Shown: piece after piece, positions 409-19,961 of the stretch
Layout: the number at the start of each line of letters is the position of its first letter
How positions within the stretch are numbered: position 1 is the stretch's first letter
The notes under the pieces: model-generated
What the model saw: only the letters and a program-made list of their open reading frames with translations
Told to the model about the DNA's origin: nothing
Databases searched by the model: none
Assembly (NCBI GenBank): GCA_035760845.1
Contig: DASTSD010000036.1
Coordinates: 1 to 24,456 of the forward strand
Length of the DNA: 24,456 nucleotides
Source of the DNA: Candidatus Saccharimonadales bacterium
Lineage (GTDB): Bacteria > Patescibacteriota > Saccharimonadia > Saccharimonadales > Saccharimonadaceae
Direction of reading: 5' to 3'
Position numbers and translations under genes: made by a program

Positions 409-2187
409 ATGAGCCAAGAAAAAGTACTTGTTGTCTCTGACTCGATTACTGTTGGCGAACTGGCCGAAACGCTCAATTTGCCCGTCACTACTTTGATTGG
501 GGAGTTGTTCAAGAACGGTATCGTCGCGACAATTAACCAACGAATTGATTTTGAGACCGCAACAATTATCGTCGAGGAGCTCGGCCTGGATGTCACGCTG
601 GAAAAGCGTGAAGCCAGCGCCCAGGCGCCCGAACGAAAGGTCCATCAGCTCAGCGACAAGGCGGTTGAACGGCCACCGATCGTCGCTGTCATGGGCCACG
701 TCGACCACGGTAAAACCAGCCTGCTCGACGCTATTCTTGATACCAAGACGACCGAGGGCGAGGCCGGCGGTATTACCCAGCACATCAGCGCCTACCAGAC
801 GATCCGGAACGATCGTTCTATAACACTGCTCGATACGCCGGGCCACGAGGCGTTTGCCGCGCTGAGACAGCACGGTGCGACCCTTACCGACGTCGTTATT
901 ATCGTGGTGGCGGCCGACGATGGCGTGAAACCGCAAACGATCGAGGCGATCCGCTTCGCGCGTGACGCCAACGCCAAGATGGTCGTTGCTATCAACAAAA
1001 TGGACAAAGACACGGCAAATCCCGGCCTTGTAAAGGGTCAGCTGGCCGAACAACAGGTTATTTCGGACGACAAGACCTGGGGTGGCGACACGCCAATGGT
1101 CGAGGTAAGCGCCAAGACGGGCCAGGGAATCGACAAACTGCTCGATACCGTACTGCTTGTTGCCGACCTCGAGGAGCTCAAGGCTGATATCGATGTTCCG
1201 GCCGAAGGCCTCGTGATCGAATCGCACATGGAAACTGGCCGCGGTGCCGTGGTTGGGCTGTTGGTCCAGCAGGGCAAGCTAAAACCCGGTCACTTCCTGG
1301 TGGCTGGCACGGCATATGGCAAGGTCCGTACGCTACTCGACTTCAAGGGCAAGGCGCTCAAAGAAGCCGGTCCTTCGACGCCTGTTACCGTTACCGGCTT
1401 CAAGGAATTGCCGCAATTCGGTGATATCTTTACTATCGTCAAAAGCGAAAAAGAAGCCCGCCAGACGACCGAGCGTGCTCGTATCGAACGCGAAAAGAGC
1501 GCTGCGACGACGAACGTCACTGGTGCCGACCTTCTTAAAATGATGAACCAAAAACACGAATCACAAGACGTGAACGTGATCGTAAAAGCCGACGTGCAAG
1601 GTTCGCTTACCTCTGTTATGGACAGCCTCCGCTTGGTAGATACCGGCGGTGAGGTGACGCTCCGTATCATCGGTAGCGGCGTAGGCAACATTTCGGAAAG
1701 CGATATTCGCTTGGCCGAAAGCAGCAACGCTATCATTTACGGCTTTAACGTCGAACTTCCACCTGCCGTCAAGCGTCTCGCGATGCGCGACAAGGTGCAG
1801 GTGCGCAACTTCCGCGTGATTTACGAACTGCTCGATGACGCCCGCCAGTCTATGGAGGCGCTACTTGCTCCAGAGGTAGTCGAAACCGAAATCGGTACAC
1901 TGACTATCAAGGGTGTCTTTAGGACCATGAAAGACCAAGTTATCGCCGGTGGTGAGATTACCAGTGGCAAAGCGATGCCGAACATCCTGGCCCGCGTCAA
2001 ACGCGGCGACGAACAAATCGCCGAAGTCGAAGTCATAAGCGTCCAGCGCCAACAGCAGGAAGCCAAAGAAGTCTTCGAGGGCGAAATGTGTGGCCTCTCA
2101 CTCAAGACCGAAAAGAAGCTCCTTATCGAAGAAGGCGACAAGCTCGAGTTCTTTACCCGTGAGCTCGTCAAGCGCACGCTCTCATAG
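409..2187 (+). CDS. infB: Translation initiation factor IF-2 (short N-terminus)
   Basis: [24 protein letters not shown] GTPase motifs; KADVQGS; ATG 409 preferred over GTG 382 because AAGGAG RBS lies at 394-399. Confidence 0.97.
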
Positions 2188-2198
2188 CCATAAGCATA

Positions 2199-2228
2199 TT
2201 GACAAAACCGCCCTTTTGGTGTAATAAT
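2199..2228 (+). promoter_or_regulatory. Putative sigma70 promoter for kinase gene
   Basis: TTGACA 2199-2204, then TG-T-AATAAT 2220-2228 in an AT-rich intergenic region. Confidence 0.55.
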
Positions 2229-2263
2229 TGTAGTAAATTACAATCAAAAACAAAAAGGGCATC

Positions 2264-3589
2264 ATGCAAAAAGAAACAGAGCAGAAACAAGACCAGCGCG
2301 AACGCGAAAAAAAGTTATTCGATAGTGCTATTGGTGACGCCTTAAGCGGTTACGCAAAGGATGGCGGTGACTGGGAAAAAGCGAAATGGGTCTTTGAAGA
2401 TGCGATCGAAAAAGGCATGCGCGTCGACGGCGCGCTCTATGTTGCCCTTGATGATATCCGCGAAGGCCATGAAGGCACACCTGAAGAGGCTGCCCGGCGT
2501 TTTTGGGAGAAGTTTCCCCTGGATAAAGCTATTGGCAGCGCCCTTACCGGCTATGCTAAAGATGGTGGCAGCTGGGAGCTGGCAAAATGGACGTTTAACA
2601 ATGCCCTGGAGGAGAAGACGGCTTTCTTGGACGTCGCGCTTGATAAGGCACTCGACGCTGCCCATGTAGGCGCTGAAACCACCAAAGAGGTAGCTGCCCG
2701 GAAGTTCTGGCGCGAACTTCACCCGTCATTCGTCGAAGCCGATATGGCAGAAGCCGACTTGGGTGATGGCGTGGAACTAGGTGAGCTGATTCACCGGCCG
2801 GACTGGAAAGGCCAAGCGGCAGGGACATTCGAGGGTGAAAAAGACGGACAGCCACTTATCGTTAAGCAGGGAATCGACGAGGAAGTTGGATACGAGCGCA
2901 GTATTCTGGCCGCCGTTGACTATCCGGGGATTCCAAAAGTACTCAGCTACACGCAAAAAAGCGATGCTCTTGACGGCTTGTCGCGCCTAGCGATGGAAAA
3001 GCTGCCCGGACGCTCACTAAAAGATCGCGTCGAAGTGAATGATCGCTGGGAGAGCAAGCCCATCGCTCCAGAGGCGGCAGTAGCAATTACCGACGGCGTG
3101 GCGGGCTGTTTTGACGCCTTGAACAAGGCGGGATATGTATACCGCGACCTGACGCTCGACCACGTGCTTGTCGATGAAGAAGGCGGCAAATATAAAGTAG
3201 GGCTAATCGACGTCGAAGCGAGCGAGCGCAAGGGTGCCGACGGCGTGGCGGAGATCGCCAACAGCGACCAAAAGCGTGGGACATGGGAGACCATGTCACC
3301 CGAAGAATTCGGTGACAATCCTAAGGTCGACGAACGCAGCAGTGTTTACTCGCTTAGCTGCCTGCTGAACCAACTGGTAGCAGGGGAATCGCCCTTTCAT
3401 GTGCCATATGAGGTCAGTGACGACGTAGGTGCCCGCCTTCGTTTTACGGAGTTCCTGCATAAGCGCGGCCCAAGCGTCCAAACCGAAGGCAAACTCGGCG
3501 AAGTAATCCGCACCGGTCTGCACCCCGACCCCGAGAAGCGCTATCAAACGATCCGCGACTTCAGGGAAGCGTTGGCAGCTGCTCTCTAG
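2264..3589 (+). CDS. Hanks-type Ser/Thr protein kinase-like protein with N-terminal 67-aa tandem repeat; atypical motifs, possible pseudokinase
   Basis: LIVK...YE, MEKLPG, VYRDLTLDHVLV, LIDVE, GTWETMSPE, SSVYSL, GESPF, PEKRYQT match subdomains II-XI in order. Confidence 0.85.
   Translation: MQKETEQKQDQREREKKLFDSAIGDALSGYAKDGGDWEKAKWVFEDAIEKGMRVDGALYVALDDIREGHEGTPEEAARRFWEKFPLDKAIGSALTGYAKDGGSWELAKWTFNNALEEKTAFLDVALDKALDAAHVGAETTKEVAARKFWRELHPSFVEADMAEADLGDGVELGELIHRPDWKGQAAGTFEGEKDGQPLIVKQGIDEEVGYERSILAAVDYPGIPKVLSYTQKSDALDGLSRLAMEKLPGRSLKDRVEVNDRWESKPIAPEAAVAITDGVAGCFDALNKAGYVYRDLTLDHVLVDEEGGKYKVGLIDVEASERKGADGVAEIANSDQKRGTWETMSPEEFGDNPKVDERSSVYSLSCLLNQLVAGESPFHVPYEVSDDVGARLRFTEFLHKRGPSVQTEGKLGEVIRTGLHPDPEKRYQTIRDFREALAAAL
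2327..2722 (+). repeat. Two tandem ~67-aa (201-nt period) repeats in the kinase N-terminus
   Basis: AIGDALSGYAKDGGDWEKAKWVF...EAARRFWEKF vs AIGSALTGYAKDGGSWELAKWTF...VAARKFWREL; GCTATTGG at 2327 and 2528. Confidence 0.95.
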
Positions 3590-3668
3590 GCCGTTTCAGC
3601 GCTATTTTTCGTCCTTTTCTATTGTTGTATTTCTTATGCTTTTTGTAGTATAATTTAAGTGGTACAAG

Positions 3669-3698
3669 TTGACAAAAACATAAAAAATATGGTAAAAT
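3669..3698 (+). promoter_or_regulatory. Near-consensus sigma70 promoter with extended -10 (possible second promoter TTGTAT 3625-3630 / TATAAT 3649-3654 upstream)
   Basis: TTGACA 3669-3674, 18-nt spacer, TGgTAAAAT 3690-3698; AAGGA RBS before ATG 3715. Confidence 0.75.
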
Positions 3699-3714
3699 AG
3701 TTAAAAGGACTCAT

Positions 3715-4044
3715 ATGGCTGGAGACGAGCTGGACCAATTCATAAATGAGATGCTGGACGCTAAAAAGCTATCTGGCGTTACTGAGGATGTCCGGGCGCA
3801 GCTGGTGAGCGATCTCAAGCAGCGCTTGCTGGACCAAATCAACAAGGCGCTCATTGACGCCCTGCCAGATGAGAAAATGGATGAATTCGAGCGCCTGCTC
3901 GATGACGAGTCTCTTACGGACGAACAAGTCCAGCAGTTTATTGTGAACTCAGGAGTTGACGTCAAGAAAGTAACGACCGTAACCATGCTTCGTTTTTATG
4001 ATTTATACGTAACACCGCCCGTTGCCGGAGGTGAGGGGGCCTAA
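3715..4044 (+). CDS. Small acidic helical protein, DUF5663-like
   Basis: 109 aa; LKQRLLDQINKALIDALPDEKMDEFERLLD resembles the LELRVGVRLSDGLSDEQLKEFESFVD core of 8588-9031; family assigned from recollection. Confidence 0.6.
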   Translation: MAGDELDQFINEMLDAKKLSGVTEDVRAQLVSDLKQRLLDQINKALIDALPDEKMDEFERLLDDESLTDEQVQQFIVNSGVDVKKVTTVTMLRFYDLYVTPPVAGGEGA

Positions 4045-4045
4045 C

Positions 4046-7000
4046 GTGGCCGAAACCCTTACTCGCACCCCCGACACAGCCGCCGAGCCGACGCGGCTTC
4101 ATTTGGTTTCTGTCGATCAGTCGTATGACGCACACCAGGCCGCACGCGATGCCGCCAATGAGCGGCTGACCGAGGAGCTTAATGAAGGCGGTCGTTTCAA
4201 GCGCATGCTCAAAAGCGTTTGGAAGGGTGGCGCGCTGCGTGAATACTACCAGCACAAATACACGCGCGAAGCCCAGGCGAATATTGAAGCAACAGGCAAC
4301 GTGCTACTCTACCAGGCGAGCACCGAGCAGTCGCAACGCGCACGCTGGGCGACGATCGACCGGTTCTTGAACGAAAACGACGAGGTCATTCACACCTCGG
4401 CGGGCGAGTCGCGTGAAGAAATTGCCTCTGATGCAGAGCTCAATCAGGAGGTTAAAGAACTTATTCGCCGCAATGTCGAAGGCGATCTCAGCGACGAGGC
4501 TATGGTCGAGGAAAAGGCCCGGCTGCTCGCCGCGTATCACGAAGCTCGCGGCGACCAGGCATTCGGCCGCGGTGTCGTGCAAGTAGACAACATGGTAGAA
4601 ATCGCGGCTGCCGTTAAGGGTGCCGTCGACCACGGCGAAAGCCTCGATGCCGTACTTGCCAACATGAAAATCAGCATGGGTGAAGCCCGTTCTGGCGTTC
4701 GCACCGAGGCTCGCTACAACAAGGTCGAGAAAATTGCCGACAAGCTCAGCCGTTCTCGCCTTGGCTCGCTGGTTGGCCCGGAGACCGTCGCGACAGCCAC
4801 GACGCTTGCTGCCAGCCTTTTGCGCTTCGGTAGCCACTCGGTCGTCGGCGCCGCTACCAAGACGATCGCACCTGGTATAGCTGCCGGTGCATGGGCGGGA
4901 CTGCGCGAAAACAAGCGTATGAAAGACGAGCGTGCGCAACATCTGCGCGAACGCGCCCAGGGCAAGGAAATCCAGGCCGGCTCGCGCCGTCGCGAACAGC
5001 TGGAAGAGACGCGCTATGAAACGGCGGCAGCCACCGATTTGACAGACATGCTCCGCCAGCACTTTGGCGAAGAAGCCGATTTTACCGCGTCAAAAGATGC
5101 TTACGAAGCGGCGATGGCCGCGCTGAGTGCCGTCGAGACGCGAATCTCGCTTTCGGACGAACGTAAGCTGGACCTTATCTCGTTTTCTGATGCCGGCATG
5201 GTCGAAGAGGAGCGGTTTGCTCTCGACCTTGCCCGGGCAGAGGCAAAAGTCGCCGCCCGCAACCGCTTGACCGACGACGTTCGCCGGGCGCTAGGCGTCG
5301 ACGCCGACCAAAGCCTTGAGGACATGATTAGCGAACGCTCCGAAGCGTTCCTTGAGTCCGTCGAAACCGATTTGTCGCAAAAAGACAAGGTATTCAAGCG
5401 CCTGAAGCGCCGCGAAGTAGCCAAGGCCGCCGCGAAAGGTGCGGTTATCGGGCTGGCCTTCGGGGCGATCACGCAGGAGGGTATTGCCGCACTATCCGAT
5501 ACTCGCCAAGGACTTATCGAGCAGGCGTGGGGTGCTACCGACCAGCCGTACGAGGGGACGATGCACCAGACGCTGCTGCATGGCCTGGTGCATGGTTCGG
5601 ACGGTGGTAACTTTACCGAGCTTCATCACGAACCTTCTGGTGACTATACGTCGCATGCTATCGGCGAGCACGGGACGATCTCGGTTTCGAGCGACCAGTC
5701 ACTCACCGAGAACGCCGACGGAACGCTCCTCCTCCGTGACCACAATGGCAATACCATCGCCGATAATCTGACAACCAATCGGGACGGTAGCCTGACAGCT
5801 GAGTCACTACAGCGCCTTAACGACAGCGGCTCGCATGTCGAGAATCTTTCGCACACGGTCGATCTTCCGCCGAAAGTCGAGACCCACCAGGGTTCGCTGA
5901 GCGAATACATGGATGCTCACAAGTCAGAAACGACCCATGTTTCGCGCGATTATTGGTACGATAACAACACCGAAAAGTTCGACAAGAACGAGCTAGGTCT
6001 TTGGTGGGGAGGTGAGAATAACAACGGCCTGACCGGGGATGGCGGATATCAATTTGATATCTCGCATATGACGCAGGGCGGCTCTTCGCACGACGGCCAA
6101 AACTTGGCATGGCAAGAAGCTGCGCGCCGGGGTGAACTCAAGCTGGCGATATCTGCCTCTGGCAATACGCAGACGCAAGTCTTTATGATTGATATCAACC
6201 CTGACGGTACGGCGACGATTCCGAAAGACAGCCCGGCTGCACAGTTCTTTAGTGAGCGCGGCGGCCAGGCGTCGTTTGATGGCAAGTATGCCGAGGTAGT
6301 CCAGACGACCAAGCCCGACGCTGACGGCGTAACGCACATCCGCCCGCTCGCGACGGAGGTCGGTAACGATACCGCGCGCACCGGTGATTTCCCGATTACC
6401 AAAGAAGTACCGGTTAAAGAATTCCGCCCTGAATACAAAATTACCAGTAATGGTTACGATACTCAGGAAGGTCAACCGACGTTCACCGAAATGGCGCCGG
6501 TTATTCCGCTTGTTCCGCGTAGGGCGCTGGAAGTTGTCCAGCGGGTTGAGCGCCCTGGCTACTATTACGGCTACGATTCCAGCCCTGAGCGCCTGCGTCG
6601 TTTCCGCAAAGAAGAGTGTTCGCCGCGCCTTAACCGCGATCCTAAAGCGCGTCTTAATCCCCGCGAAGAACTTGATTGGCACCGTGGTGAAATCCGCCGC
6701 AGGGCTGGTGCTGACTACGCCGATGGCGTCGACAGGGCGATCGATGATTCGCCAGAGCTTAGGAGCCTTCCTGCTGACACGAAGGCTATCGTGACGATTC
6801 CGATTGCCGCTGCCTCTGAGAGCGACAACATTTATCGCACGCTGGCATCATACGCGGGCCAGGACGCTGAGCTTGATCGTACGACGATCCTGCTTCACGT
6901 CAACTGGTTCGATAGTGCCGAGGGCGATCCCGCAAAAGCAGCGAGCATCCAAAAGACTTGGGACGAGATTGAGCGCGCCCGACGCGATTTCCCTCAGCTA

Positions 7001-8119
7001 AGGATCGCCACGATGAAGTCGGTCTGGGAAGAGGCAAAGAAGCGAAGCGGCGAATACGGTGACGGTATTGCCGGTCACATGGCTCGAAAGATGTACGACA
7101 CGGCGCTCATGAGCGTCCAGCGCGCCATGGCTGAAGGCCGGATGGACGACGACCACGAGGTGTTACTGATCCGCAACGACTCCGACGCGCAGGGTATCCG
7201 CCGTACGTACCTGCAGAATATGATCAAGAGCTTTGAGCAGCACCCGGAAAACGACGTGTTTACGGGCGCGATACGCTGGGGAACCGAGCGTCACACCGAT
7301 CTGCCGGGCTTTGCATTCGTTTCTAACTTCCGTGAGGTGATGCACATCGCGACCAAGCGGCGCGGCGTCAATGTTTGGCCGCCAACGGTGGGTATTAACA
7401 CGGCTGTCCGCATGTCGACGTTCGCTGCCGTCAACGGTATCGGCTACGATCCTAAGCGAACGGGCATCGGCACCGACGATTACAACATCGGCGGCCGCAT
7501 AAAAGACGCCCGTCAGATTGACGTATGGCGTGCCCGTGCGATGCGTCACTTCTGGAACCTTCGCTCTAATTCGGGCCGTACGCCTAACACTTATGGCTAT
7601 GGCTACCCAGCGGAAATGACACATGAGGACTACTCGTATCACCGCCATGTCGGCGGCGCTGATATCGATACGGCGCCTGACCGCCTTGAAAAAGCTTACT
7701 TGGCAGGAATTCCGATTACCCGTGCATGGGACAACTGGGGCAACCAGCTTCGTGACGAAGGCCTTGTCCGTGGTGCGACGGAGAATCTTCGCAGCAACCC
7801 AGGCGAAGTCATTTCACGCGTCGAAGCTGATATGAGCGCGTCGTTCACCGAGCGCTTCCACGACCGCGCGCATGTACGCGCCGGGCTGGCCGCCGTCTTA
7901 CCAACAAGTATTGGTGGTCGTCCTGCATACACTATTACTCGTACGAGCGGGGGAATGGTGTTCAGGTTTACGCCTGAAGGCCGGGCTTGGTTCGTGAACC
8001 GGCTACAACGCGACTCAAAGGGCCGGTATGATCCTATTGGCCGGCGCGTAAGGCGCAAGCTGTACCACGAGACGAATGGTGGCCGCGCACCGCGCACGAG
8101 CCAGCCATTGATGGTCTAG
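4046..8119 (+). CDS. Giant (~1,357 aa) multidomain protein: helical N-terminus, two Gly/Ala-rich hydrophobic segments, beta-rich middle region, C-terminal GT-A/GT2-like glycosyltransferase domain
   Basis: Long ORF; GTG 4046 lies 1 nt after upstream TAA with GGAGGTGAGG RBS; IVTIPIAAASESDNIYRTL, LLIRNDSD (DxD 7178-7186), VFTG, GINTAVR, GTDDYNIGGRI fit GT-A motif order. Confidence 0.75.
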   Translation: MAETLTRTPDTAAEPTRLHLVSVDQSYDAHQAARDAANERLTEELNEGGRFKRMLKSVWKGGALREYYQHKYTREAQANIEATGNVLLYQASTEQSQRARWATIDRFLNENDEVIHTSAGESREEIASDAELNQEVKELIRRNVEGDLSDEAMVEEKARLLAAYHEARGDQAFGRGVVQVDNMVEIAAAVKGAVDHGESLDAVLANMKISMGEARSGVRTEARYNKVEKIADKLSRSRLGSLVGPETVATATTLAASLLRFGSHSVVGAATKTIAPGIAAGAWAGLRENKRMKDERAQHLRERAQGKEIQAGSRRREQLEETRYETAAATDLTDMLRQHFGEEADFTASKDAYEAAMAALSAVETRISLSDERKLDLISFSDAGMVEEERFALDLARAEAKVAARNRLTDDVRRALGVDADQSLEDMISERSEAFLESVETDLSQKDKVFKRLKRREVAKAAAKGAVIGLAFGAITQEGIAALSDTRQGLIEQAWGATDQPYEGTMHQTLLHGLVHGSDGGNFTELHHEPSGDYTSHAIGEHGTISVSSDQSLTENADGTLLLRDHNGNTIADNLTTNRDGSLTAESLQRLNDSGSHVENLSHTVDLPPKVETHQGSLSEYMDAHKSETTHVSRDYWYDNNTEKFDKNELGLWWGGENNNGLTGDGGYQFDISHMTQGGSSHDGQNLAWQEAARRGELKLAISASGNTQTQVFMIDINPDGTATIPKDSPAAQFFSERGGQASFDGKYAEVVQTTKPDADGVTHIRPLATEVGNDTARTGDFPITKEVPVKEFRPEYKITSNGYDTQEGQPTFTEMAPVIPLVPRRALEVVQRVERPGYYYGYDSSPERLRRFRKEECSPRLNRDPKARLNPREELDWHRGEIRRRAGADYADGVDRAIDDSPELRSLPADTKAIVTIPIAAASESDNIYRTLASYAGQDAELDRTTILLHVNWFDSAEGDPAKAASIQKTWDEIERARRDFPQLRIATMKSVWEEAKKRSGEYGDGIAGHMARKMYDTALMSVQRAMAEGRMDDDHEVLLIRNDSDAQGIRRTYLQNMIKSFEQHPENDVFTGAIRWGTERHTDLPGFAFVSNFREVMHIATKRRGVNVWPPTVGINTAVRMSTFAAVNGIGYDPKRTGIGTDDYNIGGRIKDARQIDVWRARAMRHFWNLRSNSGRTPNTYGYGYPAEMTHEDYSYHRHVGGADIDTAPDRLEKAYLAGIPITRAWDNWGNQLRDEGLVRGATENLRSNPGEVISRVEADMSASFTERFHDRAHVRAGLAAVLPTSIGGRPAYTITRTSGGMVFRFTPEGRAWFVNRLQRDSKGRYDPIGRRVRRKLYHETNGGRAPRTSQPLMV

Positions 8120-8189
8120 TGAATGTTGTAAAATCGCAGCGTAGTGTATAATAAGCCATAAGCGTAAGTAATATAAAGAGGTGGGAACG

Positions 8190-8534
8190 GTGCAACAGCA
8201 AGATATCGACAAGTTAACGACACTTCGTCAGACAATCCTAGATAACCTAGTGCCGCTCATGGACAGCAATTCGCTGGAGCCTATGGACAGGTTCAGGCTG
8301 CTTTCGCGCCTGGCGCAGGCACAGGGCAAGCCGGAATTCTACGAGAAGGCATTTGAGGCGGCAAGCCGCCTTGAGGGTGACGACAAGCTGCAGTCATATA
8401 TGAGCCTCCTTGATGACGTTGACTACGAAATCGATACGGCCGTCAGCAGCACGGAAGGGGCGCCGCAAACGCAGCCTACCCCCCAACCACAACCAGCTCC
8501 GCAGCCTGCCCAGCAGGACAACTTCCAGCAGTAA
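8190..8534 (+). CDS. Small helical-repeat hypothetical protein with Pro/Gln-rich tail
   Basis: ORF 8181-8534; GAGGTG RBS at 8178-8183 favours GTG 8190; TATAAT at 8147-8152; tail PQTQPTPQPQPAPQPAQQ. Confidence 0.75.
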   Translation: MQQQDIDKLTTLRQTILDNLVPLMDSNSLEPMDRFRLLSRLAQAQGKPEFYEKAFEAASRLEGDDKLQSYMSLLDDVDYEIDTAVSSTEGAPQTQPTPQPQPAPQPAQQDNFQQ

Positions 8535-8587
8535 GTGGAAACTCCTCTTCTCGTGTAGTAAACTGGAGAGAGTAGAGGAGATAAATA

Positions 8588-9031
8588 ATGTTTCAATTAG
8601 ATGAACAGTTTCTCAAGGACCTGGGGTTGGATCAACTGCCGCAGGACCAAAAGCAGGCGTTTCTTGACCATATTTATAGCGAATTGGAGCTTCGAGTAGG
8701 AGTGCGACTTTCGGACGGGCTGAGCGATGAGCAGCTTAAGGAGTTCGAATCTTTCGTAGATCGTGACGACCAAAAGGTACAGGCGTGGATTGCCGCGCAT
8801 ACGCCCGACTACCGGAACGATCAAAGTTACCAGCAGCTCAAGCAAAATGCACCGCAAGGCGCAGACGAGCGGGCGCTGCTTGCAGAGTATGCATCGTTAA
8901 AGTGGCTGGGGCTTAACCGCCCTAACTACCGTGAAGTTGTCTCGCAGGTGCTTGAAGACCTCAAGCGAGAGATCATGAGCAATCGCGACACGCTCCTTAG
9001 CGACGACACCAATCAAGCGACGGCGGTATAG
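8588..9031 (+). CDS. DUF5663-family protein (CPR-associated)
   Basis: MFQLDEQFLKDLGLDQLPQDQKQAFLDHIYSELELRVGVRLSDGLSDEQLKEF is typical of the family as recalled; AGAGGAG RBS 8574-8580. Confidence 0.8.
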   Translation: MFQLDEQFLKDLGLDQLPQDQKQAFLDHIYSELELRVGVRLSDGLSDEQLKEFESFVDRDDQKVQAWIAAHTPDYRNDQSYQQLKQNAPQGADERALLAEYASLKWLGLNRPNYREVVSQVLEDLKREIMSNRDTLLSDDTNQATAV

Positions 9032-9906
9032 CCGCGCAAGAACGCAGCGGCATCCATGTGGCGGCCGCTTGGGGCGATCAGCTCGTCAACCGACAAATAG
9101 GCACCGTCTTGGCACAAAAGGTCGAGCGGTGTTTTTTGTTCGTGCGAGACGTGTGCTTTGGTGACGACGATAGGGTACTCGCCAATGACCACCTTGCTTT
9201 TAGGAAAACCGAGGTGGGCCCGGACGATGCGCTCGGCTTCAGTGGCGTTGAGGCTATCGAGCTGGAGGTCGGCATCGCTTTTTTGCAGGAGCTTGGAATA
9301 CGTCGCTTTGCTGTCGTCCTGCGGGGCAGGCAAGAGGGTGCCGTTCATGATTTCGGGCAGCGTCTCCAGTAGAAGATCGGTGCCAAGGATTGCGAGGTCT
9401 CGGTAAAGGTCGGCGCGGGTTTCGTTACCGTTAAGTGCGAACTCTTTGGCGGCAAAAACCGGGCCGGTGTCCATGCCGGCATCGATCTGCATGATTGATA
9501 CTCCGGTATGTGTGTCACCGTTCTTAATAGCGGACTCGATAGGGGTCGGGCCGCGGTACTTTGGCAGGAGCGACGGGTGGACGTTGATGATACCCGGCGT
9601 GAAAAGATCGATGGTACTCTGCGGAATAATCTTGCCGTAGCTCACCAGCACGCCGGTAACGGGGCCGAGCTTTTTGATGCCTTCGTTGATGTCGGCGACT
9701 TTCGTGGGCTGCCAAACGGTAATGTCGTGCTTCATGGCGAGCACTTTGACGCTTGGCATGACTAGCTGCTGGCCGCGGCCTTTTTTGCTGTCGGGTTTGG
9801 TAACGACGGCCGCGACGGCGTGGCCGGCCTCTATAAGGCCTTCAAGGACGGTGAGGCTAAAATCCTCAGTCCCAAAGAATACGATTGTTTCGGATGTGTT
9901 CGTCAT
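9013..9906 (-). CDS. fmt: Methionyl-tRNA formyltransferase
   Basis: IVFFGT, VVTKPD..GRG, VSYGKII, INVHPSLLPKYRGPTPIE, MDTG; real start is Met71 of track ORF (9906). Confidence 0.95.
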   Translation of the reverse strand: MTNTSETIVFFGTEDFSLTVLEGLIEAGHAVAAVVTKPDSKKGRGQQLVMPSVKVLAMKHDITVWQPTKVADINEGIKKLGPVTGVLVSYGKIIPQSTIDLFTPGIINVHPSLLPKYRGPTPIESAIKNGDTHTGVSIMQIDAGMDTGPVFAAKEFALNGNETRADLYRDLAILGTDLLLETLPEIMNGTLLPAPQDDSKATYSKLLQKSDADLQLDSLNATEAERIVRAHLGFPKSKVVIGEYPIVVTKAHVSHEQKTPLDLLCQDGAYLSVDELIAPSGRHMDAAAFLRGYTAVA

Positions 9907-10441
9907 AGTCGAGTGGTTGGAGCTCGCCTTTCTCGTCGAGCGTGTAAAAAGCTTTCGTCTCGTCTTTGATGTGATCGATAAAAACGATGCCGTTAGTGTG
10001 GTCGATTTCGTGCTGGATGACGCGGGCGAGGAAACCTTCGGCCTTGAAGCGGACCTCGTTGCCTTCGACGTCGAGGGCGCGGACGCGGATTTTTGAGTGG
10101 CGCGGAACGAGGCCATAGATGTTATTTACACTGAGGCAGCCTTCGTAGTCGCTGATGATCTCGCCTTCGTATTTGACGATTTCCGGGTTGATAAGCGCGG
10201 TGAAGTCGCGGGTTGCCTTGTCTTCGAAGTCGCTGCGAACGATAACGACGCGTTCGAGCTTGTCGATCTGGACGGCGGCAAGCGCGGCACTGATTTCGTG
10301 CGGGCGCGAATCCTCCCAGTCGAGCGATGCGCTGGTCATGTCGGCGATAAGCTGGTTGATGTCACTGGTGATATCACGGACCTTCGCTGATTTGTCACGA
10401 AGGTGAGGGTTGGGCAAAGTAATGATGTTTTCTTTTTTCAT
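9866..10441 (-). CDS. def: Peptide deformylase
   Basis: LAAVQI, EGCLS, QHEIDHTNG metal-binding motifs; adjacent to fmt. Confidence 0.95.
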   Translation of the reverse strand: MKKENIITLPNPHLRDKSAKVRDITSDINQLIADMTSASLDWEDSRPHEISAALAAVQIDKLERVVIVRSDFEDKATRDFTALINPEIVKYEGEIISDYEGCLSVNNIYGLVPRHSKIRVRALDVEGNEVRFKAEGFLARVIQHEIDHTNGIVFIDHIKDETKAFYTLDEKGELQPLDYDEHIRNNRILWD

Positions 10442-15235: not shown

Positions 15236-16021
15236 TCAGAGAACCATGCTCATGATGAGCCGGTTCACCTTGTGGCCTTCCGGCACGTAGAGCACCTCAC
15301 GAAGCGCCTGGTCCTGGCCGGCCGACTCCACGGTGAGCGTGGCGTACTGGGTCCGGATGATACGGAGCCAGGCCAGGATGTTGCTGATCGGCGGAAAGCC
15401 GGCCGTCTGGTCCGTCAGCTTGCTGAGCGGCATCGTCTTGTACCGGATGTCGATGATGCCGGTCACGACGAGCAGGCGCTTGTCGGTCACGCAGATCCGG
15501 TGCAGGTGCCACGCGAGCAACCGGCAACCGAACACGACCATGCCGGCGAGCAGCAGTACGAGCGCCGCCTTGAGGCTCATCGCGGCCACGAAAACCACTG
15601 CGGCCAAAAGGGCGGCGCCCCCGATGAACCACGGCCAAAGGCTGATGGGGTGCTCTCGCGACTCCCAGAGCAGCACCTCGCCGGAGAAGTTCTCCTGGGC
15701 GCCCTTGACTCCCTTGCGGCTCTTGGCGAGCGCCTTCTTCACGCGCTCGCTCGGCACGAGGGCCTCGTCCTCCTCTTCACGGTTGTTGTACGAGTGCAGC
15801 GAACCTCGGATGACCCGAAGGGTCACGAGGATGCCGACGATCGTGACGAGCACAGTGATCAGTAGGAGTACGTTGTCGTGCGGCGAAAAGCCGACCAGTG
15901 CCCAGCAGGCGATGATGCCGAGGGCGATGGCCCCGATGATCCACGATTTTCCGTGGTCCTGAAGGGTGTCCAGGCGCCGGTCGATCTCGGCCATGGATGG
16001 CAGGAACTTCGGTCGTTTCAT
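15236..16021 (-). CDS. Membrane protein with bacterial PH (bPH_2-like) domain; GC-rich
   Basis: Two hydrophobic hairpins; GEVLLWESREHP; ICVTDKRLLVVTGII...TMPLSKLTD...LTVESAGQD; AAGGAGG RBS. Confidence 0.8.
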   Translation of the reverse strand: MKRPKFLPSMAEIDRRLDTLQDHGKSWIIGAIALGIIACWALVGFSPHDNVLLLITVLVTIVGILVTLRVIRGSLHSYNNREEEDEALVPSERVKKALAKSRKGVKGAQENFSGEVLLWESREHPISLWPWFIGGAALLAAVVFVAAMSLKAALVLLLAGMVVFGCRLLAWHLHRICVTDKRLLVVTGIIDIRYKTMPLSKLTDQTAGFPPISNILAWLRIIRTQYATLTVESAGQDQALREVLYVPEGHKVNRLIMSMVL

Positions 16022-16131
16022 AACCCCTCCTTAGGGACGGTACGATCTTGGCAGTGTTACCTGTAAGACAGAATTAAATTATACAATAAAAACTAAAATC
16101 CAGCAATAATTCCACGGCAGGTAATCGCGTA

Positions 16132-16160
16132 TTGCACTCTATAGAGTTCTCTGTTACAAT
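16132..16160 (+). promoter_or_regulatory. sigma70 promoter for rpsU operon
   Basis: TTGCAC 16132-16137, 17 nt, TACAAT 16155-16160 preceded by TGt; ATG follows 10 nt later. Confidence 0.75.
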
Positions 16161-16170
16161 AGTGAACGAT

Positions 16171-16386
16171 ATGGTACAAGTAACACGTAAAGACGAACGC
16201 GAAGCGAACGATAACATTATTCGTCGTTTCAACCGCAAAGTATTGCAGAGCGGCGTGCTGGCAGAAGCTAAGGCAGCTATGCGCATGAGCCGTCCACTTA
16301 GCAAGACCGAGCGCCGCAAGAAAGCGATTATTCGCAAAGAGCGCAAAGCGGACAAGCTAGCTAAAGCCCGATTGGGGATCCGCTAG
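16171..16386 (+). CDS. rpsU: 30S ribosomal protein S21
   Basis: MVQVTRKDEREANDNIIRRFNRKVLQSGVL...SKTERRKKA; basic 71 aa; upstream of yqeY as is common. Confidence 0.8.
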   Translation: MVQVTRKDEREANDNIIRRFNRKVLQSGVLAEAKAAMRMSRPLSKTERRKKAIIRKERKADKLAKARLGIR

Positions 16387-16389
16387 TTC

Positions 16390-16842
16390 ATGGCGCTGAA
16401 GCAGCGCATCGAAAGCGATATGAAAGCCGCTCTTTTGGGCGGCGATCGTTTTGTCGGGGAAACGCTCCGCGGCTTGAAAGCGGCTATTCTTAACGAAGAA
16501 GTTGCCCAAAACAAGCGCGACACCGGCCTCGACGACGCGACGATCGAGCAGATTATCGCCAAAGAGGTGAAAAAACGCAACGAATCGGCTGCGATTTACG
16601 AGCAGAACATGCGCGAGGACGCCGCCGAGAATGAACGCCGCGAGGCGGAAATCCTTGGCCGCTACTTGCCGGAGCAGCTTAGCGAGGCGGAGCTCAAAAC
16701 CGTCGTCGATGCTAAAATTGCCGAGCTCGGTGCGACCGATGTAAAAATGATGGGCCAAGTCATGGGCGCCGTCAAAAAAGAAGTGGGTAACGCCGCCGAT
16801 GGCGCGACGCTCGCAAAGCTAGTCAAAGAAGCGCTTAGTTAA
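16390..16842 (+). CDS. GatB/YqeY domain protein
   Basis: LKQRIESDMKAAL, KEVKKRNESA..Y, E..IL..YLPEQLSE, MGQVMGAVK...ADG. Confidence 0.92.
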   Translation: MALKQRIESDMKAALLGGDRFVGETLRGLKAAILNEEVAQNKRDTGLDDATIEQIIAKEVKKRNESAAIYEQNMREDAAENERREAEILGRYLPEQLSEAELKTVVDAKIAELGATDVKMMGQVMGAVKKEVGNAADGATLAKLVKEALS

Positions 16843-16860
16843 ACAAAAAGAGGAGAGAAG

Positions 16861-17406
16861 ATGATCGTATTTTTTGGTCCCGCTGGTGCAGGCAAGAGCG
16901 TGCAGGGGCAACTATTAGCCGCGCGTAACAACTGGCGCTGGCTGAGTTCAGGCCAGCTGCTCCGCGATACGCACGATATCGAGCTGATCAAGGAAATGCA
17001 GACCGGCCATTTAGTAACGCCTGAAAAGGTAAACGAGCTGATGGGCGATGCGCTGAGGCGCGCTAAAAACGTCGACCGCGTTATCCTGGACGGGTACCCA
17101 CGCCAGCTTTCGCAGGCAAAGTGGCTGATCCAGTCGCAGCCCGAGCACGAACGTTCTATCCAGCTGGTGATCGTTCTTGAGGTGCCACGCAGCGAACTGC
17201 TCAAGCGCATTGAGGTTCGCGGCCGTATCGATGATACGCCGGATGCTGTCGACGAACGCCTGCGTATTTACCGTACCGAAATCTACCCGATTCTTACTTA
17301 CCTTACCGAACAGGGCGTGAACGTCGCGCACATCGACGGGACCGGTTCGGTCGGCCAGGTCCACGACCGTATCATGGACGAAATGATAGCTCACAAATTG
17401 GCGTAA
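16861..17406 (+). CDS. adk: Adenylate kinase (short, no LID)
   Basis: GPAGAGKSVQ P-loop, LSSGQLLR, ILDGYPR, RGRIDDT, RL..Y. Confidence 0.9.
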   Translation: MIVFFGPAGAGKSVQGQLLAARNNWRWLSSGQLLRDTHDIELIKEMQTGHLVTPEKVNELMGDALRRAKNVDRVILDGYPRQLSQAKWLIQSQPEHERSIQLVIVLEVPRSELLKRIEVRGRIDDTPDAVDERLRIYRTEIYPILTYLTEQGVNVAHIDGTGSVGQVHDRIMDEMIAHKLA

Positions 17407-17407
17407 T

Positions 17408-18163
17408 ATGTCTCAGCCCAAGAAAACCCCAGCACAAATCGATGCGATGCGCGAAGGCGGCAAGCTCCTCGCGACTATTTTTGACGGTCTTAAAAAGATT
17501 GTTCACGCCGGTGTGAGCGAACTGGAGGTTGACGCCTGGGTCGAGGCCGAAATCAAGCGCCTTGGCGCGGTAGCTACGTACAAAACCAGCGAAGTGAACT
17601 TTCCAGGCGTTATTTGTATTAGTACGAATGACGAGATCGTTCACGGTATACCGACCGACTATGTTTTTGAAACGGGCGACGTGGCGAGTTTTGACCTCGT
17701 TATTACGTATAAGGGAATGAAAACCGACGCGGCGTTTACGATGGTAGTCGACGAAAAGCCAACCGGGGTGAAAAAGCATCTTATTAATACTACCGAGCGC
17801 AGCCTGTACGCGGGCATCGACGCCATAAAAGGCCCTGTTTATACTGGCGACATCAGCGCTGCGATCGAAAAGGTGCTTGATAGCGCCAAGCTTGGTATCG
17901 TGCGTGAGCTGGTTGGCCACGGGGTGGGGCAGGAGATGCACATGCCACCCGAGATCCCAAACTACGGATCAAAAGGCTCCGGCGTGCTGCTAAAACCGGG
18001 TGATACCATCGCGATCGAACCGATGGCAATGCTCGGCAAAGAGCGTATCACCACCGACGCCGACGGCTGGACAATCCGTACTCGTGACGGCAGCCTTGCG
18101 GCTCACTTTGAACACACCGTACTCGTAACCGAAGACGGTGCCGAAATCCTGACGCAACAGTAG
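17408..18163 (+). CDS. map: Methionine aminopeptidase type I
   Basis: CISTNDEIVHGIP, D..TD, GHGVG..MH, AIEPM, AHFEHTV. Confidence 0.96.
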   Translation: MSQPKKTPAQIDAMREGGKLLATIFDGLKKIVHAGVSELEVDAWVEAEIKRLGAVATYKTSEVNFPGVICISTNDEIVHGIPTDYVFETGDVASFDLVITYKGMKTDAAFTMVVDEKPTGVKKHLINTTERSLYAGIDAIKGPVYTGDISAAIEKVLDSAKLGIVRELVGHGVGQEMHMPPEIPNYGSKGSGVLLKPGDTIAIEPMAMLGKERITTDADGWTIRTRDGSLAAHFEHTVLVTEDGAEILTQQ

Positions 18164-18169
18164 TAGAGC

Positions 18170-18198
18170 TTGACATTTTATTTAACTTATGCTAAATT
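18170..18198 (+). promoter_or_regulatory. sigma70 promoter for orphan gene
   Basis: TTGACA 18170-18175, 17 nt, TAAATT 18193-18198 preceded by TGc. Confidence 0.7.
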
Positions 18199-18249
18199 AT
18201 TTTTATCTACTTATAGATAAAACAAACAAAAAGCAAAGGTACATATAAA

Positions 18250-18606
18250 ATGAGCGAAGTCATTCGAAACAATCAAAATCAAATCCTGGACACTGACGGC
18301 CACCCACTTGAGCAGGTAGCGGCGTACAACAGTGCTGAGCGAAGAAATGCTGCTGCGACCGTTGAAGAGAAAAGGGAATTAGCTAACGCTGCTTTACGAC
18401 TTAGTGGGTCATCCCGCGAAAGTTACGATGCGGTTGGCGCACAGCGTGAGGCTGAAACCCAGGAGGCTGCCGCAAACTGGAAAGGCTTTGAGCACTATAA
18501 CCGGAATGCAGGCGCCTATCAGGAAGCCGCATATGAAGAAGATGCACGTCGCAGTGCTCCTGAAGAAAGTACTGAAGAAGCGCCTGCTCCTGAAGTAAAA
18601 CAGTAA
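18250..18606 (+). CDS. Acidic Ala/Glu-rich hypothetical protein
   Basis: 118-aa ORF with own promoter, AAAGG upstream, and downstream terminator. Confidence 0.7.
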   Translation: MSEVIRNNQNQILDTDGHPLEQVAAYNSAERRNAAATVEEKRELANAALRLSGSSRESYDAVGAQREAETQEAAANWKGFEHYNRNAGAYQEAAYEEDARRSAPEESTEEAPAPEVKQ

Positions 18607-18623
18607 TAGTAACAACTTAGCTA

Positions 18624-18658
18624 AAAATAAATACGCCTTCTCGTGGCGTATTTATTTT
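18624..18658. terminator. Intrinsic terminator, likely bidirectional
   Basis: AAAATAAATACGCC-ttctcgt-GGCGTATTTATTTT, perfect 14-bp arms. Confidence 0.9.
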
Positions 18659-18722
18659 GGCACATTGAGACATGTCCTAAGGGTCCTAGCCAAAACCCCG
18701 CATAAGCGGTATACTTTTACGT

Positions 18723-19961
18723 ATGCAAGAAACATCTCGATACGCTGTCGGTATTGATATCGGAACGACAACTGTTCGTTGCGTTGTAGGCCATATCGAC
18801 GCCACCACAGGAACTCCGACGATCGTAGGGGTAGGACAAGCACCAAACAGCGGCATGCGCAAAGGGGTCGTCGCCAATCTGACAGGTCCGGCCCGTGCGA
18901 TAGACGAGGCGCTCGGCGAGGCTGAGCGCATGAGCGGCTACCAAGTGAACGCCGCGTCTATTAGTATTAATGGCGCACATATTCTTAGTACCAAAGCCGA
19001 TGGCATGATCGCTGTCGGGGCCATGGATCACGAAATTACTCACGAGGACCTCTCGCGGATCGAAGAAGTCGCGACGCTTGGCAAGGTTCCAGCCAACCGC
19101 GAAATCCTCGAGGTAGTACCACACAGCTACCGTCTGGATGGCCAAGATAACATCAAGGATCCTATCGGCATGACGGGTACGCGCCTCGAAATCAACGCTA
19201 ATGTCGTCTCGGCGTTGGCGCCACACCTTGCGAACCTCCAAAAGACCTCCGAGATGGCCAAGGTTGACCCTCGCTCTATTACGCCTGCGGTCTTGGCCGC
19301 TGCACGCGCGGTTCTGAGCGAACAGCAAATCGAGAACGGCGTTGCCGTAGTGGACCTCGGTGGTGCGACGACGAGCGTCGCCGTGTTTGAAGAAGGCGAC
19401 CTGCAGTACGTCGCGGTCATTCCGGTTGGTGGCGTGAACATCACTAACGACCTGGCTATCGGCCTCAAGACCGACCCCGAAATCGCCGAAAAGGTAAAGG
19501 TGGGCCACGCGACGGCCGTCGCCCGCAAGAACGACGAGCGTATTTCGATCAAGCAAGAGAAAGAAACGTTCAACTTTGACTCGAGCGACGTCGACGAAAT
19601 CGTCGAGGCCCGCCTTGAAGAAATTTTTGATGCAATCCACAAAGAACTCAAAAAAGCCGGTCGTGCCGGACAGCTGCCAAGCGGCGTCGTGCTGACGGGT
19701 GGTTCTGCCAAGATAAAAGGCATTGCCGAGTTCGCCAAGGAAAAGCTTGGCCTTGCGGCGCGGGTTGGCAAGTCGACGGGCTACGGCGGTGTCGCCGAAA
19801 ACATCGAAGAGCCGCAATATGCTGCGGTCGTAGGGCTGATGCTCCTGGATTCACAGGGGTCAAGCCAGCCTGCGGGCAGCCACAAAACAGGTGGCGGCGG
19901 CAAGGCACTCAAAAACGCCGGCGGCTTCGTATCGAAGTTTTTAGACAGGTTTAAGGCGTAA
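18723..19961 (+). CDS. ftsA: Cell division protein FtsA
   Basis: GIDIGTT, GMRKGVV, VDLGGATT, GG.NIT.DLA, VLTGG; TATACT 7 nt before ATG. Confidence 0.97.
   Translation: MQETSRYAVGIDIGTTTVRCVVGHIDATTGTPTIVGVGQAPNSGMRKGVVANLTGPARAIDEALGEAERMSGYQVNAASISINGAHILSTKADGMIAVGAMDHEITHEDLSRIEEVATLGKVPANREILEVVPHSYRLDGQDNIKDPIGMTGTRLEINANVVSALAPHLANLQKTSEMAKVDPRSITPAVLAAARAVLSEQQIENGVAVVDLGGATTSVAVFEEGDLQYVAVIPVGGVNITNDLAIGLKTDPEIAEKVKVGHATAVARKNDERISIKQEKETFNFDSSDVDEIVEARLEEIFDAIHKELKKAGRAGQLPSGVVLTGGSAKIKGIAEFAKEKLGLAARVGKSTGYGGVAENIEEPQYAAVVGLMLLDSQGSSQPAGSHKTGGGGKALKNAGGFVSKFLDRFKA

Follow-up and report, generated by a model that had tools for sequence, protein, structure and literature searches.

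A Patescibacteria family of modular giant proteins with a conserved body and an exchangeable GT-A glycosyltransferase head

The GtrA/GtrB/GtrC serotype-converting sets vary glycosyltransferase specificity from strain to strain on a conserved framework, and TarS joins a GT-A domain to beta-rich domains. A common GT-A fold is found in the GT2 enzymes, e.g. SpsA (1h7l), TarS (5tze), TarP (6h1j), PcManGT (6yv7), K4CP (2z86) and the hyaluronan and chitin synthases. The large clostridial toxins (TcdA/TcdB, GT44) are big single chains that combine a GT-A domain with weakly hydrophobic helices; they have their GT44 domain at the N-terminus and also carry a cysteine protease domain, a delivery domain and CROP repeats. 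In polymorphic toxin systems (CdiA-CT/CdiI, Rhs, LXG and MafB; Zhang et al. 2012, PMC3482391) a conserved N-terminal part is followed by a junction motif, the point of recombination, and the C-terminal enzyme is exchanged together with an adjacent small gene. We compare with these systems a giant gene from the window, i.e. the whole analysed stretch of 24,456 nucleotides of contig DASTSD010000036.1 (assembly GCA_035760845.1, Candidatus Saccharimonadales bacterium).

The giant gene (4046..8119, +) is intact, a single open reading frame with a 1357-aa product. The ORF list gives 4022..8119; the likely start, GTG 4046, lies behind GGAGGTGA and one base past the TAA that ends the upstream gene, and yields the 1357 aa. 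The product comprises a conserved body of ~815 residues (an N-terminal module whose three Gly/Ala helices are weakly hydrophobic, then a beta-rich domain, ending in a junction motif) and an exchangeable GT-A head. The succession of hydrophobic Gly/Ala helices, beta-rich part, Pro-rich junction and C-terminal GT-A domain is as an earlier note on this DNA had described it, and the absence of a Sec signal peptide, also claimed there, was borne out by the polar N-terminus. The gene belongs to an unnamed family of modular giant enzymes in Patescibacteria, of which we found no description in the published literature. The family is large and known from the ultra-small Patescibacteria only; it occurs in 20 of 401 sampled genomes, and the head alone has matches in 517 clusters at 50% identity. 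A same-genus genome carries an empty site; thus the gene is accessory.

The head (residues 847-1357; 6584..8119, +) consists of a helical N-extension from 847, a core from 914 whose first strand spans residues 914-921, a disordered insert (1169-1191) and a basic C-terminal tail. The AlphaFold2 model of the GT-A region has a pLDDT of 86 and aligns with GT2 structures over 200-270 residues (VIA Z 16.6 for chitin synthase, 15.8 for SpsA, 15.2 for TarP and 15.0 for TarS). Foldseek matched the head to hyaluronan synthase (E 7.6e-7; probability 1.00), and its structural neighbours in the ESM Atlas and Swiss-Prot are GT2 without exception. Both Asp of the DxD motif (D1045-S-D1047; 7178..7186, +) are invariant in 99 aligned heads, the window's included, as are six further residues. 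A TDD occurs at 1143-1145, where the family consensus is GAGSDD, and the order of the motifs suggests that it is the (E/D)D catalytic-base motif that follows the acceptor loop in GT2 enzymes. The modelled head is in this way confirmed as a GT-A fold of the GT2 type with intact catalytic motifs. The earlier note had proposed a GT-A-like domain from ~6780 (residues ~915-1180), with DSD at 7178-7186 and a TDD motif; all three were recovered, the fold with VIA Z of 15-16.6 to GT2 enzymes, and the lack of a GT-A fold by which the note would have stood refuted does not apply.

The window protein's own sequence matched nothing in Pfam, NCBIfam or PDB sequence profiles. GT2 Pfam models were matched by 14 of 99 relatives at E of 0.1 or lower, with some divergent members passing the gathering scores (30.2 bits against 27 for PF13641; 26.8 against 23.3 for PF00535), so that the window protein is joined to the GT2-like glycosyltransferases by transitive homology. 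The heads of the type-2 cassettes are likewise GT-A (hhalign probability 97.9%, E 3.3e-13), with DAD as the counterpart of DSD and GED aligned to TDD.

Besides the fold, the head has in common with GT2 enzymes the DxD, the downstream acidic (E/D)D and a GGxN-type loop. It differs from them by VNW in place of the usual Asp-rich second strand, by an extra helical N-extension of ~65 residues and a C-terminal extension of ~140 residues, and by its fusion behind an 815-residue body found in no characterised GT2 enzyme. No toxin glycosyltransferase appears among its 50 best structural matches, and Pfam/NCBIfam-type searches of the giant protein found no protease or repeat domain families. Like the large clostridial toxins, the giant protein is a big single chain with a GT-A domain and weakly hydrophobic helices, but the domain order is reversed and its glycosyltransferase is C-terminal and GT2-like. 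The parallel with these toxins drawn in the earlier note is therefore an analogy only and not homology: each of the top fold matches is a GT2 enzyme, and no translocation domain of solved structure resembles the N-terminal module.

The head also has relatives that stand alone, ~500 aa long and with no signal peptide. Some of them have no hydrophobic segment, which would suit a soluble enzyme of ordinary glycan synthesis, or a scaffold without catalysis whose GT-like domain only binds ligands. For the giant protein either is very improbable: ordinary GT2 enzymes have no 815-residue body, partner genes or cassette exchange, and the invariance of DxD and the six further residues in the 99 heads speaks against a loss of catalysis. 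Moreover, no capsule or glycan cluster surrounds the giant gene, which speaks against the ordinary capsule-cluster enzyme that the note had named as a refuting outcome. In one of the stand-alone relatives RKRK follows an N-terminal anchor, an arrangement that would put its glycosyltransferase inside the cell.

The N-terminal module (residues 1-500; 4046..5545, +) is a compact helical/alpha-beta domain that AlphaFold2 folds confidently (pLDDT 84.3, pTM 0.82). No structural relative was found in the PDB (best Foldseek E 0.19, best VIA Z 6.7), one uncharacterised AFDB cluster being matched at E 9.5e-5; as modelled, the module is a novel fold. It contains a hydrophobic pair rich in Gly/Ala/Thr, H1 (241-259) and H2 (266-284), at 4766..4897 (+), with a conserved Pro-Glu within H1 and Pro-Gly within H2, in a region of low model confidence. 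H3 (465-483; 5438..5494, +) is the glycine-zipper-like hydrophobic end of a 60-residue helix. These are the hydrophobic segments that the note had located at ~4760-4910 and ~5415-5495. H1-H3 are conserved in 100 relatives, yet weakly hydrophobic: the medians of their Kyte-Doolittle 19-residue maxima are ~1.4, and no more than 20% of members attain 1.6. A rough insertion-energy sum gives +4 to +7 for H1-H3, whereas the window's VKOR membrane protein has -3 to +4; these Gly/Ala helices are less hydrophobic than ordinary membrane helices of the same genome.

Somewhat short of even confidence, we favour reading the giant protein as a membrane-associated enzyme that acts from the bacterium's own cytoplasm, with a specificity that varies by strain. 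GT-A enzymes require nucleotide sugars, and none are available extracellularly. This need, the absence of a signal peptide, helices too weakly hydrophobic for confident Sec insertion, a net positive H1-H2 loop and the stand-alone heads (no signal peptides, RKRK behind the anchor of one) argue for the cytoplasmic face. So does a relative, P0119, in which a kinase domain, which would depend on ATP, is fused behind the head. The same observations (nucleotide sugars, a kinase without ATP, poor insertion scores, the positive loop) make it quite unlikely that the giant protein is a three-span membrane protein with its beta-rich domain and head facing outward to remodel own or host surface glycans, the alternative that the note had put forward. 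Basic flanks precede H1, follow H2 and, strongly basic, precede H3, and an acidic one follows H3, the mean net charge over 100 members being +4.2 before H3 and -1.3 after it; this asymmetry fits a span with the 870-residue beta domain and head outside. In the AlphaFold2 model long helices rise like stalks from the N-terminal domain and continue into H2 and H3, as an outward-facing protein might have. Cysteine is also nearly absent from the family (a median of 0 per ~1350 residues, where the window's other genes have 0.48%), which is frequent in exported proteins of monoderm bacteria and so favours an outward face, or export, over the cytoplasmic reading.

The beta-rich domain (residues ~523-814; 5612..6487, +) belongs to the conserved body and is folded, with a pLDDT that exceeds 90 at most positions, so that the beta-like spacer of the note proved to be a folded, conserved domain. 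Its fold was left unassigned by search because GT-A matches dominate each search. Trp, Tyr, Asn and Asp positions around 634-650 are highly conserved, and such aromatic and Asn/Asp residues again suit an outward-facing domain. The body ends in the junction motif FTEMAPVIPLVPRRALE (residues 812-829; 6479..6532, +), which is retained in the family consensus and contains, at 817-826, the Pro-rich APVIPLVPRR that the note had seen leading into the GT-A domain.

This motif is the boundary of exchange. Strains with bodies 92-96% identical carry heads just 23-27% identical, and in two strain pairs DNA-level cassette replacement is visible: identity stops at the junction motif, the breakpoints correspond to query residues 822 and 829, and the replaced segment is the head plus the gene of a small downstream partner. 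Head and downstream partner are exchanged jointly between near-identical strains. Head and body trees conflict strongly, the body clade being rejected on the head alignment (p-AU 7e-41). The exchange is the strongest feature of the locus and was absent from the earlier note.

The giant gene forms a three-gene cassette with this partner and a DUF5663 protein upstream, the latter being conserved along with the body. The upstream partner (3715..4044, +; 109 aa) is acidic, helical and without signal peptide. It matches PF18908 with E 0.0011 and 20 bits, under the gathering score of 23.7 bits; its close homologues carry PF18908 in precomputed annotation, and a downstream DUF5663 copy at 8588..9031 scores 71.2 bits, above the same cut-off. 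In every context read, and in several of the sampled genomes, the gene immediately before the giant gene is a DUF5663 gene, and the pair is kept across families; the upstream-partner homologues are 56-92% identical, and giant-gene homologues on contigs of the same lengths are only 42-51% identical. Complex prediction gave the pair a score of 0.46 against 0.00 for the best control (58 of 80 solved complexes attain the calibration mark, as do 2 of 110 mismatched pairs), with an interface at residues 223-259. DUF5663 is thus weakly predicted to clamp H1. A predicted partner at H1 that is soluble and without signal peptide speaks against an outward-facing protein; for the cytoplasmic reading the complex prediction is weak support. 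The idea that the helices are translocon- or pore-like rather than ordinary anchors held in part: they are less hydrophobic than the membrane helices of the genome and a small cytoplasmic-type partner is weakly predicted over H1, but no solved translocation or pore domain matches the N-terminal module.

The downstream partner (8181..8534, +; 117 aa) combines a helical domain of ~85 aa with a tail rich in Gln and Pro. Every context read carries a homologue, which in type-2 cassettes lies in the inverted orientation. A conserved paralogue of its domain is present in 20 of 22 sampled same-order genomes, some of them without the giant gene; the domain therefore looks general-purpose rather than dedicated to immunity. 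An optional neighbour, an atypical Ser/Thr kinase (2264..3589, +; Pkinase E 3.6e-12), heads an accessory island. It is present in L010 and missing from L003 and G109, and L002 has a PP2C gene in the same slot; such adjoining kinase or PP2C genes are in keeping with an enzyme in the cytoplasm. A HopA1-family protein is encoded nearby in the P0119 locus.

A body, a junction, a swappable C-terminal enzyme and a co-swapped gene are the layout of polymorphic toxins, which counts against the cytoplasmic reading. It is possible, although not probable, that the protein is a polymorphic effector delivered by contact, whose GT warhead acts in the cytoplasm of a host bacterium or competitor; the body would serve trafficking and membrane insertion, DUF5663 would be a chaperone shielding H1 before export, and the downstream protein an immunity-like neutraliser. 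The breakpoints at the junction, the conflict of the trees, the patchy, accessory gene with its empty site, the weak hydrophobicity of H1-H3, the small acidic partner weakly predicted over a hydrophobic helix, the scarcity of cysteine and the kinase and HopA1-family protein of P0119 all agree with this. In Saccharibacteria, moreover, a type IV secretion system is essential and has no known substrates (PMC10633639), and 2417 of 3035 Patescibacteria assemblies contain VirB4 (PMC12102498). But Pfam, NCBIfam, PHROG and PADLOC found no secretion or trafficking domain in the body, and in five genomes no VirB4/VirD4-like ATPase is linked to the giant gene. Unlike a varied toxin repertoire, the examined heads are uniformly GT-A; the N-terminal module is compact with a conserved fold, and the small partner's domain has its paralogue also in genomes without the giant gene. 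We know of no glycosyltransferase interbacterial toxin. The protein may, we infer, be delivered into another cell. The fuller proposal, which we consider rather doubtful, is that epibiotic Patescibacteria have an undescribed kind of polymorphic effector system: DUF5663, as a chaperone, would solubilise the membrane-inserting body, the body would carry the exchangeable GT head into or onto a host bacterium or rival, the head would glycosylate an envelope precursor, and the co-swapped protein would protect the producer.

For the enzyme acting from its own cytoplasm, the body would dock from the cytoplasm on the membrane of its own cell via H1-H3, which may be a re-entrant or peripheral anchor rather than classical spans, and the DUF5663 protein would bind around H1, either to assist assembly or as a chaperone. 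The head would take a cytoplasmic nucleotide sugar, held through the DxD motif, and transfer the sugar, inverting its configuration, to an envelope acceptor close to the membrane. Regulation of the enzyme would fall to the adjacent kinase or phosphatase genes. A swap of the head with its cognate small partner would alter donor or acceptor specificity and hence the surface glycan of the strain, in parallel with serotype-converting glycosyltransferase variation. Variable specificity on a constant framework, with GT-A joined to beta-rich domains, recalls GtrA/GtrB/GtrC and TarS; here, by contrast, the constant and variable parts are in one polypeptide, and the partners are small soluble helical proteins, not accompanied by lipid-carrier or flippase genes. 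The lack of flippase, polymerase and sugar-nucleotide genes nearby weighs against this reading as well.

Much of bacterial diversity belongs to the Patescibacteria, which live attached to other bacterial cells, and the molecules of this interface are almost wholly uncharacterised. The modular diversification of the giant-gene family is of the kind typical of recognition or conflict molecules, and the family offers a tractable entry point: its catalytic site is clear, its junction is defined, and it has two partner proteins of its own. Should the head alter the surface glycans of the epibiont, this would bear on phage escape and host range; if it is delivered, it would be, to our knowledge, the first glycosyltransferase-type interbacterial effector and a candidate substrate of an essential secretion machinery.

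We consider it very probable that the giant gene of the window is intact and belongs to a large, so far undescribed family of Patescibacteria genes, in which a head of GT2 type goes with two dedicated partners and is exchanged as a cassette. The list of open reading frames gives the gene as 4022..8119 (+). Its start is likely the GTG at 4046, judging from the surrounding sequence: this codon lies 1 base past the TAA of the upstream 109-aa gene (3715..4044, +), is preceded by a GGAGGTGA ribosome-binding site and gives a protein of 1357 residues. The gene is single-copy in its genome (832 kb, 153 contigs, ~92% complete) and the remaining genes of the window are housekeeping genes (infB, fmt, priA, recJ, adk, map, ftsA, ftsZ, nrdR and the start of isoleucyl-tRNA synthetase).

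The full protein sequence matched nothing in Pfam, NCBIfam or PDB, and PDB profile searches with three alignments gave no match. PADLOC and PHROGs were empty for the giant protein and its three small neighbours, and the ideas of a defence system and of a phage tape-measure protein were rejected on this ground. The named homologues belong to Saccharibacteria / Saccharimonadia. A word-based search returned more than 130 full-length relatives, mostly of 1250–1500 aa and all unnamed. The last 488 residues, used as query in an exhaustive HMMER search, gave 517 clusters at 50% identity, the matched part being the C-terminus of a large protein in almost all cases; region 150–500 found matches almost only in similarly long proteins. 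Among 401 sampled Patescibacteria genomes the head profile matches 20; 4 of the 11 genomes of the window's own family have a match, and the order's seven other families, represented by 11 sampled genomes, have none. Literature searches on DUF5663, on Saccharibacteria glycosyltransferases or effectors and on Patescibacteria polymorphic toxins turned up no account of this family or of DUF5663 itself.

The head (residues 847–1357) is predicted, from sequence and model, to be a GT2-type GT-A enzyme. The C-terminal GT-A domain proposed in the earlier note was borne out by the AlphaFold2 model of residues 484–1357 (mean pLDDT 86.1), with which the structure searches were made. Foldseek against PDB retrieved hyaluronan synthase (E 7.6e-7) and also PcManGT, K4CP and TarS, and VIA-align placed chitin synthase (Z 16.6), SpsA (15.8), TarP (15.2) and TarS (15.0) nearest; the neighbours were all GT2 clusters in the ESM Atlas and all GT2 proteins in AFDB Swiss-Prot. 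At E ≤0.1, GT2 Pfam models are matched by 14 of 99 heads, and the most divergent heads exceed the curated cut-offs over nearly the full profile (PF13641, 30.2 bits vs 27; PF00535, 26.8 bits vs 23.3). The DSD motif is D1045-S-D1047 (nt 7178–7186) and the TDD motif lies at 1143–1145; E925, N953, D1045, D1047, N1118, G1149, R1156 and R1213 are invariant across the 99 aligned heads. No toxin glycosyltransferase is found within the best 50 structure matches of the head, and the large clostridial toxins, invoked earlier for comparison, can be kept as an analogy only. Past the GT head, P0113, a protein of the family, carries a DUF362 domain (residues 1351–1553, E 5e-17) and P0103, another, a weak AceK-kinase-like stretch (1601–1657, E 0.003). 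No informative Pfam family was obtained for six short tails that lack a GT match.

Bodies (residues ~1–815) and heads were compared pairwise in 100 proteins. Those of P0095/97/99/100/101 and P0108/P0110 have bodies 92–96% identical and heads 23–26% identical; for P0040 and P0088 the values are 94% and 27%. By sliding identity, the closest body relatives of the window protein (55–70% identical) have heads merely 35–48% identical to its own, and more distant bodies (35–57%) carry heads 55–72% identical to it. In two related loci, L012 and L011, the DNA is 96% identical as far as giant-gene codon 833; no similarity is detectable through the head and the small gene that follows, and 100% identity resumes directly after. 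Loci L010 and L003 display the same replacement pattern, and both 5' breakpoints correspond to residues 822–829 of the window protein, within the conserved FTEMAPVIPLVPRRALE. The body tree groups the window protein in a clade with support 100/100, and this clade is rejected on the head alignment (log-likelihood difference 863.5, p-AU 7e-41).

A second, divergent head type (type 2) is ~20% identical to the first. With hhalign the two types align at a probability of 97.9% (E 3.3e-13), the DxD, GGxN and (E/D)D motifs in register. The type-2 head is thus still a GT-A domain, so that, in the members examined, exchange would alter the glycosyltransferase specificity and leave the enzyme class unchanged. 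One apparent orphan head cassette was rejected: P0135, which begins exactly at the Met of the conserved junction motif, is the final segment of a giant gene that is split into three overlapping ORF calls (L015, 2–3758). The split in L015 may reflect frameshifts or a pseudogene, programmed expression of the head only, or an assembly error.

In all contexts read, a DUF5663-type gene (~105 aa) ends a few bases 5' of the giant gene, and this adjacency is independent of the conservation of the wider neighbourhood. DUF5663 is more widely spread than the head (79 of the 401 genomes); comparison of coordinates shows that at least 9 genomes with a large head match have a copy a short way upstream, on the same strand. 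Between homologues paired by the length of their contigs the upstream partner is 56–92% identical vs 42–51% for the giant protein. Downstream of the giant gene, the Saccharimonadales contexts read have a small helical protein of ~100–145 aa (117 aa in the window, 8181..8534, +). These proteins form one family, the copies of type-2 cassettes being inverted and more divergent. Of 22 sampled genomes of the same order, 20 have a longer paralogue with the domain of this downstream partner, among them some without the giant gene; the small-partner matches in giant-less genomes are this conserved paralogue, and their candidacy as orphan immunity genes was rejected. One protein of 170 aa (L013 3157–3669, contig 5 of genome G109) joins a disordered Pro/Thr-rich N-terminus to a C-terminal downstream-partner domain; it sits between what we take, from ORF translations read by eye, to be sugar-isomerase-like and FemAB-like genes.

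The 147-aa DUF5663 gene at 8588..9031, by its placement in related genomes, is a resident gene outside the cassette. In G131 (locus L008), a genome of the same genus that lacks the island, infB is followed by 45 nt and then by the resident DUF5663 gene; in G109, also of the same genus, the three cassette genes (DUF5663, giant, small) lie between infB and the resident copy. These arrangements delimit the window island to ~2188 to 8587. The resident gene (8588–9031) and fmt (9013–10116) are convergent and overlap by 19 nt at their 3' ends. The G+C of the island (window 4001–8000) is 0.57–0.60, slightly higher than that of its flanks (0.52–0.55).

The window island additionally contains, at its head, a gene for an atypical Ser/Thr kinase (2264–3589). 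Both the window and L010 have this gene, L003 and G109 lack it, and in locus L002 a PP2C phosphatase gene fills its slot; from this distribution it is an independent insertion or deletion. The kinase matches the PADLOC PD-T4-6 kinase models (best E 5e-27), which is probably generic kinase similarity. In the family protein P0119 a kinase domain is fused C-terminal to the GT head; its similarity to the window kinase is weak (24% identity, E 3e-10). The P0119 locus (L006) also encodes a protein of 1066 aa that contains a domain of the HopA1 effector family (1550–4750, E 1.2e-11) and, at 15881–19252, has a second DUF5663 gene 5' of the gene for a large surface protein made with repeats of the CarboxypepD_reg type.

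The features of the giant protein listed in the earlier note were all found where it had placed them, and its claim that a Sec signal peptide is absent agrees with the polar N-terminus. Small-residue-rich hydrophobic segments number three: H1 (241–259), H2 (266–284) and H3 (465–483). They are kept in 100 full-length relatives and their hydrophobicity is weak: Kyte-Doolittle 19-residue maxima have medians of ~1.4, and at most one fifth of the members reach 1.6. Their insertion-energy sums are +4 to +7 vs −3 to +4 for the VKOR membrane protein of the window, these sums being rough. Conserved polar residues lie within the helices (Pro-Glu in H1, Pro-Gly in H2, Gln-Glu in H3). The model of residues 1–500 (pLDDT 84.3, pTM 0.82) is a compact helical/alpha-beta domain, in which a 38-residue helix begins with H2 and a 60-residue helix ends with H3; H1-H2 juts out of the domain with low model confidence. 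Searches with this N-terminal module gave no structural relative in PDB by Foldseek (best E 0.19), a best VIA Z of 6.7, within the tool's stated noise range, and a single match in AFDB clusters, an uncharacterised 1117-aa protein (E 9.5e-5). The region following it, described earlier as a beta-like spacer, is indeed beta-rich but is modelled as a folded domain (residues ~523–814, pLDDT mostly >90) in which Trp, Tyr, Asn and Asp are near-invariant at many positions. No fold could be assigned to this domain, GT-A matches dominating all searches with the two-domain model, and the protein-language atlas gave no usable lead for it or for the N-terminal module. The APVIPLVPRR junction occupies residues 817–826.

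The DUF5663 partner likely binds the giant protein, which we base on a predicted complex and on the conservation and tight spacing of the gene pair. Residues 1–500 with the upstream protein scored 0.46 vs 0.00 for the best control (tool verdict "weak support"), the confident contacts involving residues 223–259, that is H1 and the preceding helix. In the calibration of the tool, 58 of 80 solved complexes came up to the mark, as did 2 of 110 mismatched pairs; 7 of the 80 solved complexes and both of these mismatched pairs did so in the range up to 0.60. The counts are only roughly valid here because the alignments were user-supplied.

An outward-facing or exported head is suggested by the strong charge asymmetry of H3 (+4.2 before, −1.3 after) and by the absence of glycan-pathway neighbours. 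The family is also nearly cysteine-free (median 0 vs 0.48% in neighbouring genes), an argument weakened by several cytoplasmic proteins here that likewise have none. An outward-facing enzyme with three membrane spans seems improbable to us. The likeness of the architecture to polymorphic toxin systems, and the HopA1-family protein in one related locus, also speak for export; we regard a delivered polymorphic effector as rather unlikely. VirB4 is found in ~80% of Patescibacteria (PMC12102498), and type IV secretion systems are common in the phylum and essential in one cultivated Saccharibacterium, without known substrates (PMC12102498, PMC10633639). The window genome has weak VirB4/VirD4-like matches only, and in five genomes the giant gene showed no linkage to AAA_10 / type IV secretion ATPases.

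Other observations speak for a head that works in the cytoplasm of the producer. GT-A enzymes require nucleotide sugars. The giant protein has no signal peptide, nor do the stand-alone relatives of the head, in one of which RKRK follows an N-terminal anchor; H1–H3 are poor candidates for Sec insertion, the H1-H2 loop has a net positive charge, and the kinase fusion of P0119 points the same way. We give very little credence to an ordinary soluble enzyme or a non-catalytic scaffold. The reading to which we lean, still tentatively, is that the giant protein would be a membrane-associated enzyme acting from its own cytoplasm, with a specificity that varies from strain to strain.
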